The notes under the pieces were generated by a model, which was not told the DNA's origin, ran no database searches, and saw only the letters and a program-made list of their open reading frames with translations. From Escherichia phage Turkey5, in the sequence record PQ471516.1: DNA of 64,000 nt. One strand, given 5' to 3'. Numbering within the stretch: the stretch's first letter is position 1; each line of letters starts with the position of its first letter. The translations under genes and the position numbers were made by a program. Positions 44,731-45,423 of the stretch are shown one piece after another.

Positions 44731-44760
44731 TTGGGAAATACTCCAGAAAAGTGCTATAAT
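44731..44760 (+). promoter_or_regulatory. sigma70-like promoter with extended -10 (TTGGGA ... TGcTATAAT)
   Basis: same TGCTATAAT element as promoters at 20405 and 51054. Confidence 0.45.
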
Positions 44761-44766
44761 GTATAG

Positions 44767-45290
44767 TGAAAATGACAATGGGCGGTGTAAGCCGGATAAC
44801 GAGAACCTAATTCTCTTGAAAATGTAAAGGATAGATGAGCTTTACCATTGTAGCGAAGTGCAGAAGAAACCCGTTAGAGTACTAGCAGCCATTCAAACAA
44901 GGCATAAGAACTACGAATCACGGCAATGCGGCACTATAAAGAACTCCGACAGCATAACAGAGAGTTCCTAGATAGACATATAAGGATCGCACCTTACCAG
45001 ATTTGCTAAGGGAGTTTAACTCAATAAATGCGGTCGCAATTTTTCACAAGAAAGTTGCGTCCAAATTTTGAGTAAACAAGTACTACTTTGGTCGAATAGA
45101 GTTAGTACTTTGTGCTGGGGATGAAAAGACCAGTGACCGTTGCATATGACTGCGATAGAGAGAAACAGAGCAACCCGCTTTCGTTCTCTTAAATTAGACG
45201 AGAAAGATCCGTCTAAAATTTGAGAAATTCGCAATTCGACAATTCCGATGCCATCAGCGTCAAGAAGAGACTTAATTGTCTCTTTTTTAT
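44767..45290 (+). ncRNA. candidate structured non-coding RNA (unclassified)
   Basis: ~520 nt with no plausible ORF or RBS, visibly GC-richer than flanks, bracketed by promoter and terminator; several internal hairpins. Confidence 0.25.
45265..45290 (+). terminator. rho-independent terminator
   Basis: aagagac ttaatt gtctctt then T-run. Confidence 0.7.
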
Positions 45291-45423
45291 TACTTTCATT
45301 CCCCTGCGGGGGGATGAAATGTCCTCAACAAATCCCGTCAAGCTTTTAAAGTACAATATAAAGGAATGAATGAGTTTACGAAGTAAACGATATGAATTCT
45401 TGAGTTACGAAGGAACGAAGTGA

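Follow-up and report, generated by a model that had tools for sequence, protein, structure and literature searches.

Within a stretch of 64,000 nucleotides from Escherichia phage Turkey5 (PQ471516.1; hereafter the window), an ORF-poor gap of 694 nt at 44730-45423, preceded by a 137-aa ORF whose stop codon ends at 44729 and followed by a 142-aa ORF whose ATG lies at 45424, raises the question of what such an interval encodes. The initial annotation proposed a structured non-coding RNA, lying in about 690 nt of ORF-free DNA, richer in GC than its surroundings and bracketed by an extended -10 promoter and a terminator. We confirmed the interval, in which the longest ORF comprises 72 aa on the minus strand and no ORF is conserved among 30 homologues; the GC enrichment is present as well, with a modest difference (0.40-0.42 in the region versus 0.29-0.37 in the flanks). 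In the 30 homologues the longest ORFs range from 41 to 107 aa and vary in strand and length, so that none is conserved, and no conserved reading frame was detected at the RNA locus. Moreover, indels in the alignments are not multiples of three. An intact protein-coding gene at this place in related phages, regarded beforehand as the sign of a decayed gene, was not found in conserved form, and the proposal stood.

Several public records place short "hypothetical protein" ORFs within the RNA gene, as follows:

RaK2 ORF245, L024:1489-1695: annotated ORF inside the RNA gene.
121Q gp516: annotated short ORF inside the RNA gene.
JNE01, 149437-149550 and 267265-267477: annotated short ORFs inside RNA copies.

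Not being conserved between homologues, these short ORFs are probably mis-annotations. Two genes upstream of the RNA gene, a 197-aa ORF (43327-43920, + strand) matches an HNH endonuclease annotation found at the equivalent place in related phages and probably encodes a free-standing homing endonuclease.

The window comes from an Asteriusvirus and shares 97-98% identity with another, Escherichia phage vB_EcoM_JNE01 (355 kb), in whose record the corresponding gap is unannotated. A 501-nt core of the element matched 71 phage records, all of them Rak2-like jumbo myoviruses (jumbo phages of Escherichia, Klebsiella, Salmonella, Erwinia, Yersinia, Pectobacterium, Cronobacter, Xanthomonas, and Serratia), typically in four places per phage genome. 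In JNE01, the copies located within 350 kb of its sequence were:

Copy D, about 8.07-8.65 kb, + strand: ORF-free gap.
Copy A (the window copy), 64.0-64.65 kb, + strand: ORF-free gap.
Copy B, 148.9-149.5 kb, + strand: ORF-free gap.
Copy C, 266.95-267.5 kb, + strand: ORF-free gap.

A covariance model of the 3' domain (R1) found exactly copies A-D in JNE01 and no other; its complete set of hits, at E <=1e-24, consisted of the four JNE01 copies, the window copy, the RaK2 copy, and three copies in bacterial islands. In the window, neither BLAST (word size 7) nor the covariance model revealed a second copy. Each of the four copies has the promoter, the core, a GC-rich hairpin termed P15, and the motif CAAATCYCGTCA, and the paralogues are about 70% identical to one another. 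Furthermore, type-specific peripheral inserts are conserved across phage genera, and the copy positions are syntenic across genera. On these comparisons, the window RNA is the predicted A-type member of a four-paralogue family carried by all Rak2-like jumbo phages, and the four paralogues are ancient and diverged. Across phage, IMG/VR, and metagenome collections, the family was restricted to Rak2-like jumbo phages among the matches listed; motif scans of IMG/VR and metagenomes were filtered with nhmmer, and only contigs confirmed as element copies were kept, with about 14 true copies among the at least 120 loci listed for the loose metagenome pattern, most of which were false positives. RaK2 carries a diverged full-length copy directly after a putative sigma-factor gene. 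No relationship exists among the genes downstream of copies A-D, and copy B is followed by a convergent terminator without a co-oriented gene, which points to a stand-alone unit. The multi-copy nature of the element, its 3' extension, and its copies in bacterial islands had been missed by the first reading of the sequence.

The unit opens with a promoter, and the extended -10 element noted at the start of the interval was recovered as TGcTATAAT (44752-44760), conserved in homologues:

44732..44760, + strand: promoter, with box TGGGAAA (44732-44738), a spacing of 16 nt, -10 box TATAAT (44755-44760), and extended -10 TG (44752-44753).

The consensus scan reported the same region as TTGGGA-18-TATAAT with an upstream TG (44731-44760). 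Promoter and terminator scans are consensus matches, neither significant alone, and the weight of both patterns comes from the conservation of the two elements in homologues. Indeed, TGnTATAAT with a TGRRACR box 16 nt upstream occurs in all paralogues, orthologues, and island copies. In the genome of phage CBB, a promoter class with the -35 element "TGAAACG" is enriched before DNA-synthesis genes (PMC5259590), and the CBB copy of the RNA carries exactly TGAAACG. By analogy with this DNA-metabolism promoter class, the TGRRACR box suggests early or middle timing for the RNA; the middle-phase assignment is weak and the timing uncertain, because the extended -10 alone could serve host sigma-70. 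Other matches to TGRRAnn-N15-17-TAYAAT occur in the window at 2227, 4876, 12897, 17948, 39626, 53547, and 56974 (+ strand) and at 54320 (- strand), those at 4876 and 53547 also with an extended -10 TG. In D-type copies (L002:8099-8135 and L021), a covarying hairpin followed by U7-8 directly adjoins the 3' side of the -10 box; the upstream gene probably terminates at this hairpin, and with this placement transcripts from the RNA's own promoter would probably begin within the 5' arm of the hairpin.

A comparative alignment and an Infernal/Rfam scan had been suggested as checks of the candidate RNA. Both were run, and the former, on 30 homologues, supported the candidate with compensatory changes in 68 of 103 pairs. 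The alignment (A4) comprised 30 non-redundant sequences (<97% identity), on which we counted the pairs of a structure model drawn in window coordinates (103 pairs, 17 helices, two pseudoknots). Canonical pairing reached 89.6% of cells, compared with 74% in column shuffles and 37-45% when partners were slid by 1-3 columns; changes on both sides affected 26-33 pairs in the slid controls, and the covariation score was 0.405 versus <=0.135 in controls. None of 500 shuffles matched any observed measure, so that compensatory pairs exceeded the controls, as is generally expected of a structured non-coding RNA. An earlier RNAalifold run on 20 sequences gave 71 pairs, 44 with compensatory changes, and the single-sequence fold had z = -3.5. 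One-sided changes, read on the + strand, convert C-G into U-G or A-U into G-U; the G-U wobbles fit this strand alone, which indicates that it is the folded one. Across paralogues, invariant blocks alternate with co-changing stems and cleanly inserted or deleted hairpins. The comparative evidence strongly supports the prediction that the interval encodes a real, large, and intricately folded structured non-coding RNA.

The core RNA and the elements of its 5' part are the following:

44766..45290, + strand: core RNA, about 525 nt, from alignments A3/A4, RNAalifold, pair counts, and z-score.
44775-44781 / 44845-44851 (P3 loop), + strand: pseudoknot PK1, from pair counts.
44783-44794, + strand: P1a variable hairpin, enclosed by PK1.
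44807-44834, + strand: P2 with conserved loop GAAAAUGUA, enclosed by PK1.
44839-44841 / 44852-44854, + strand: P3 hairpin, whose loop takes part in PK1.
44857-44861 / 44931-44935, + strand: P4, with 3/5 pairs compensatory.
44871-44878 / 44918-44923, + strand: P5, nearly invariant.
44879-44917, + strand: type-specific insert, enclosed by P4 and P5.

The core is inferred to start 5-8 nt past the -10 box and to end at the terminator U-tract. Helices 1-4 (44775-44851 region) had changes on both sides in 6/7, 3/3, 7/8, and 2/3 pairs, with covarying examples such as ACAAUGG/CCAUUGU, CUGCUUG/CAAGCAG, and CUGAAAGG/CCUUUCAG. P5 is uninformative on covariation because it is nearly invariant, and the P4/P5 region (44857-44935) contains the invariant strands GCAGAAGAAACCCGU and CACGGCAAUGCGGC. 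Between JNE01 copy A (L001:4220-4233) and the window (44920-44933), CACGGCAATGCGGC changes to CACGGCGAAGCGGC, with two adjacent-region changes; it is the sole notable JNE01 difference within an "invariant" block, in an otherwise fixed strand.

Downstream of P4, the central and 3' parts contain:

44941..44967, + strand: P6 hairpin GAACUC...GAGUUC (helix 7), 6/6 pairs compensatory, 96.6% paired.
44968..45014, + strand: joining regions GAUAGACAUAUAAGG and CUAAGGGAG, with invariant columns in A3 and A4.
44981-44985 / 44992-44996, + strand: P7 (helix 8), flanked by GAUAGACAUAUAAGG and CUAAGGGAG.
45015..45077, + strand: P8, a variable long hairpin, absent in B-type and a clean block in alignments A2-A4.
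45078..45110, + strand: P9 hairpin (helix 9), 11/12 pairs compensatory, its loop (45091-45097) in PK2.
45091-45097 (GUCGAAU) / 45234-45240 (AUUCGAC), + strand: pseudoknot PK2 (helix 10), stacked directly on P11.
45112..45263, + strand: most conserved 3' domain (helices 11-15), including the invariant GACCGU.
45114-45118 / 45130-45134, + strand: P10.
45151-45155 / 45229-45233, + strand: P11.
45158-45162 / 45178-45182, + strand: P12, with loop AAACAGAGCAACCCG.
45184-45188 / 45222-45226, + strand: P13, holding an A-type insert hairpin (45194-45216).
45247-45251 / 45257-45261, + strand: P14.

The outer part of P9 is poorly aligned by MAFFT and 69% paired. PK2 is 99% paired, with 6/7 pairs compensatory; its variants include GUCGAAU/AUUCGAC, GAUUGUAU/AUACAAUC, GUUCAUAU/AUAUGAAC, and GAUUGCAU/AUGCAAUC, and it was recovered de novo by an unbiased scan for covarying columns. 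As for the hairpins listed in the initial annotation, gacg...cgtc (45197-45213) is real, covarying in orthologues as an A-type-specific insertion, whereas agagaa...ttctct is not a conserved pairing and gives way to GAGAG/CUUUC (P12) and UUCUC/GAGAA (P13). Long unpaired stretches are also invariant (GAAAAUGUA, UGAG, GCAGAAGAAACCCGU, CACGGCAAUGCGGC, GAUAGACAUAUAAGG, CUAAGGGAG, GACCGU, and GAAACAG..CAACCCGC), a putative signature of tertiary contacts or of an active or binding site.

Some other candidate elements were discarded. The long-range RNAalifold pairings GAUG(AG)/CGUC of the 3' motif and GGGA/UCCC were rejected, as they show no compensatory change and are disrupted in several copies, namely those of RaK2 and L009/L059 and others reading GUUGAG. 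A hammerhead-like reading of CAGAUGAG...CGAAG was rejected by eye, its core positions being variable, and a k-turn at the GA...GA flanks of P3 is unsupported (A44856 varies).

The terminator reported at the end of the interval was found as well, is conserved, and has a stem that covaries in homologues. In contrast, the 3' boundary placed at 45292 did not hold, since the unit reaches further, to at least 45341. This end of the unit comprises:

45264..45290, + strand: intrinsic terminator, stem 45266-45271 / 45278-45283, then a U6 run.
45295..45318, + strand: P15, GC-rich hairpin UUCAUUCCCC-UGC-GGGGGGAUGAA, found after every copy.
45329..45341, + strand: motif CAAATCCCGTCAA (CAAATCYCGTCA across the family).
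45342..45423, + strand: A/T-rich segment containing a TATAAA-like box position along with recurrent ACGAAG-type motifs, from comparison of 30 downstream regions.

The terminator is the single terminator-like site in 44000-46000 (consensus scan, which placed it at 45262-45287 with a T run behind it) and has the conserved GC-containing stem-loop and U-run of an intrinsic terminator, with 5/6 stem pairs compensatory (helix 16). Its U-run is retained in A-type, B-type, and island copies, and the whole terminator block is missing from C- and D-type copies. P15 (helix 17) has one compensatory pair and six with one-sided variation, in every case from C-G to U-G; since U-G is tolerated on the + strand only, P15 probably exists as RNA, at the least in transcripts that read through the terminator or lack it. 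The motif CAAATCCCGTCAA occurs once in the window, and exact occurrences of CAAATCYCGTCA in JNE01 are confined to the four elements, with conservation in the island copies too. P15 and the CAAATCYCGTCA motif, although 3' of the terminator, by their conservation appear to belong to the RNA unit. After the CGTCA motif follows a second, looser conserved block (45342-45423 in the window, the 230 nt following the other copies), in which many other copies have a small covarying hairpin, GACAUUC-GAA-GAAUGGC, just before the ribosome-binding site of the next gene or a convergent terminator. Whether this block is part of the RNA unit is uncertain.

The family also occurs in a few integrative islands of bacterial chromosomes. 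With each species represented by a single genome, a scan identified Citrobacter amalonaticus P55 and an Enterobacteriaceae MAG as carriers of full-length copies, and BLAST of complete E. coli genomes found a copy in 2 of 5426:

L179:3475-4133: copy of Citrobacter amalonaticus P55.
L170:6376-7045: copy of the Enterobacteriaceae MAG.
NZ_CM130020.1, 245204-245786 (L197:16001-16583): copy of E. coli EEC_W5.

In Citrobacter, a large serine recombinase and a 165-aa ORF flank the RNA gene, which is adjoined by a CI-like S24 repressor and a Ner-like regulator, in an element inserted beside hofB/ppdD. In the MAG, its neighbours are thiM and a homologous repressor, and in E. coli EEC_W5 it is found within an 11-kb island adjoining ffs, which carries an IS3-disrupted tyrosine integrase and a candidate defence system, PDC-M45. 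Common to the islands are the RNA and a 118-aa secreted protein. A tblastn search with seven island proteins, covering all phage loci as well as the JNE01 genome, found no homologue; with no protein shared between islands and phage, no candidate partner emerged. The island copies are A-type, with promoter, terminator, P15, and motif, and they keep 87-88% (Citrobacter and E. coli) or 77% (MAG) of the modelled pairs. Furthermore, 10 compensatory double changes separate the Citrobacter and E. coli copies, which argues that the RNA structure is under selection in islands too. The comparison of these copies shows the putative RNA unit to have been exchanged between phages and host mobile elements.

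Known RNA families do not account for this element. All 4227 Rfam 15 models were run with cmscan over the whole window, including RNase P, tmRNA, 6S, group I/II introns, GOLLD, ROOL, OLE, HEARO, raiA, riboswitches, and T-box, and nothing exceeded the gathering threshold; at E up to 10 over 44600-45500, only chance-level matches to miRNA, CRISPR-repeat, and snoRNA models appeared (14-17 bits), and on six loci holding other copies Rfam gave nothing on the elements, so that every paralogue type was negative. ARAGORN predicted 0 tRNA/tmRNA genes in the window. The earlier remark that the segment resembles neither tRNA, tmRNA, nor RNase P was thus borne out by ARAGORN and Rfam alike. Regarding guide-RNA systems (omega RNA/HEARO, bridge RNA, retron, DRT), no cognate nuclease, recombinase, or reverse transcriptase is adjacent; the phage neighbours of the RNA copies are small unrelated ORFs, and the recombinases of the islands, which differ from one island to the next, are serine and tyrosine integrases of an ordinary kind. 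Full-text literature, searched also by literal core sequences, gave no description of the RNA family, and no published RNA-seq for Asteriusvirus, Alcyoneusvirus, Mimasvirus, or Eneladusvirus was found in the literature. The RNA appears, from its sequence and predicted fold, to be a genuine, previously uncatalogued class of large structured RNA.

We propose that a large, highly structured non-coding RNA is encoded by 44732-45341 as a self-contained gene, as the conserved architecture indicates, and we lean, with somewhat better than even confidence, to an RNA that works in trans as a folded molecule. During infection, RNA polymerase would transcribe the gene from the extended -10 promoter, and the transcript would fold into a compact tertiary structure, which might serve as a ribonucleoprotein scaffold, a ribozyme-like catalyst, or a self-assembling particle like ROOL, GOLLD, and OLE. 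The four paralogues would be sub-specialised, and any partner, host- or phage-encoded, would not be linked in the genome, because no neighbouring gene is common to the copies. P15 and CAAATCYCGTCA, which lie beyond the terminator in A/B-type copies, are left unexplained by an RNA that ends there and acts purely in trans. This is where the main rival, which we consider possible though unlikely, has its appeal: the structured transcript would be the pre-primer of a replication origin, like ColE1 RNA II or the R-loop transcripts of T4 oriF/oriG, reading into the C4/G6 hairpin, CAAATCYCGTCA, and A/T-rich DNA and there priming or opening the origin, so that four origins would serve a 350-kb genome and islands with the module would be replicated by the infecting jumbo phage. 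Such a reading would explain why the post-terminator sequences travel with the RNA and why islands want the module. The whole module, including the post-terminator sequence and the A/T-rich repeat-bearing DNA, is one conserved block in phages and islands, its promoter class is associated with DNA-synthesis genes in CBB (PMC5259590), the four copies are dispersed and co-oriented (at about 8, 64, 149, and 267 kb), and the phage encodes RNase HI and a T4-like replisome (JNE01 annotation); C- and D-type copies, moreover, are without a terminator, so that transcription runs into P15. However, a strong covarying terminator separates the RNA from the putative origin DNA in A-type, B-type, and island copies, about 100 selected pairs, two pseudoknots, and long invariant loops far exceed what known primer RNAs need, and no initiator gene is linked; GC skew, which tracks gene orientation, has no inflection at the copies, a test that is uninformative here.

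Three further accounts are each unlikely. A giant cis-regulatory leader (riboswitch-, T-box-, or put-like antiterminator) controlling terminator read-through into the downstream gene would fit the order of promoter, structured RNA, terminator, and co-oriented gene seen in the window (142-aa ORF at 45424) and in the islands, and copies C and D also have a co-oriented gene; we nonetheless consider it improbable, as the downstream genes are unrelated between copies and of no consistent functional class, copy B, like its orthologues, leads to a convergent terminator and not to a gene, both of which argue against a leader, copies C and D have no terminator to regulate, and no Rfam cis-regulatory family was matched. 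The size, pseudoknots, and invariant single strands would equally suit a known class from which the RNA has diverged very far (RNase P RNA, group I/II intron, tmRNA, 6S, HEARO/omega RNA, GOLLD, or ROOL), in a phage that carries tRNAs and a CCA-adding enzyme, and ACAGAGCAACCCGCUUUCG presumably bears a loose resemblance, by eye, to the RNase P CR-V region. Against this stand the Rfam searches of the window and the six other copies, noise at E up to 10 included, the negative ARAGORN result, and the absence of flanking exons or of an associated IscB, TnpB, or RT gene, which make it very improbable. That there is no RNA gene at all, and that the locus is a decayed protein gene or a repeated DNA element (MITE or recombination site), is scarcely credible: the element is repeated in the genome and short ORFs are annotated within it (RaK2 ORF245, 121Q gp516), but compensatory substitutions, strand-specific G-U tolerance, indels not in threes, unconserved ORFs, the lack of terminal repeats, and positions syntenic across genera all speak for an RNA.

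It is, to our knowledge, seldom that a new class of large and complex RNA comes to light in bacteria or phages. OLE, GOLLD, ROOL, HEARO, and raiA were each notable discoveries, and several proved to be ribozyme-like, guide, or cage-forming RNAs. Coliphages that can be cultured and have a tractable host carry the present RNA (PBECO4, 121Q, G17, JNE01, and others), which makes experimental study immediately feasible, and its four ancient paralogues are natural specificity variants. On the practical side, several public genomes mis-annotate "hypothetical proteins" across the RNA gene. Moreover, the presence of the RNA in host islands suggests that jumbo phages and mobile or defence elements interact at the RNA level in a way not explored so far. 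In this context, a speculative and rather doubtful idea is that the RNA is the core of a Rak2-like jumbo-phage RNA machine (particle, ribozyme, or origin-activating RNA) and that island copies are weapons in phage-host conflict. If so, these copies would be mimics that poison the phage RNA machine on infection or, alternatively, hijacking devices by which the island is replicated or mobilised by the jumbo phage, and this would be the first large structured RNA shared by virulent phages and host mobile elements as an object of conflict.

Among known systems, ColE1 RNA II and T4 oriF/oriG resemble the window RNA gene in that a promoter drives a transcript (here a predicted one) of about 0.5 kb, on whose downstream side lies conserved DNA bearing G/C runs, and the T4 origins oriF/oriG use middle promoters. 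The window copy differs from both in having an intrinsic terminator before the DNA module and in the far greater conservation of its structure. The phi29 pRNA is likewise a phage-encoded structured RNA acting in trans, as proposed for the window RNA, whose covarying loop pairings could in principle be intermolecular as well; it is, however, three times shorter, unrelated in sequence, and present in single copy. By lineage, the nearest precedent is PA5oct, from a related jumbo-phage clade, in which RNA-seq revealed four ORF-free lncRNAs (ncRNA001-004) of 0.24-0.62 kb with no function assigned (PMC7318152). The 3' end of ncRNA004 (L198:1387-1411) has a hairpin, UUUCCUUCCC-AAAC-GGGGAGGAAA, that resembles P15; for ncRNA001-004, homology was detected neither by nhmmer --max nor by cmsearch with R1 at E up to 1. 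ROOL, GOLLD, and OLE have no sequence or structure match to the window RNA, whose family differs from them in its residence in Enterobacterales jumbo myoviruses, with four paralogues per genome and no tRNA linkage. Nevertheless, like the RNA described here, they measure 0.5-0.8 kb and combine numerous helices with pseudoknots or kissing contacts and with unpaired nucleotides that do not vary (Rfam; PMC12286853), and they are often phage- or prophage-borne, stand-alone genes with no assigned function (PMC12286853). By kind, these ornate large RNAs would be its closest analogues.
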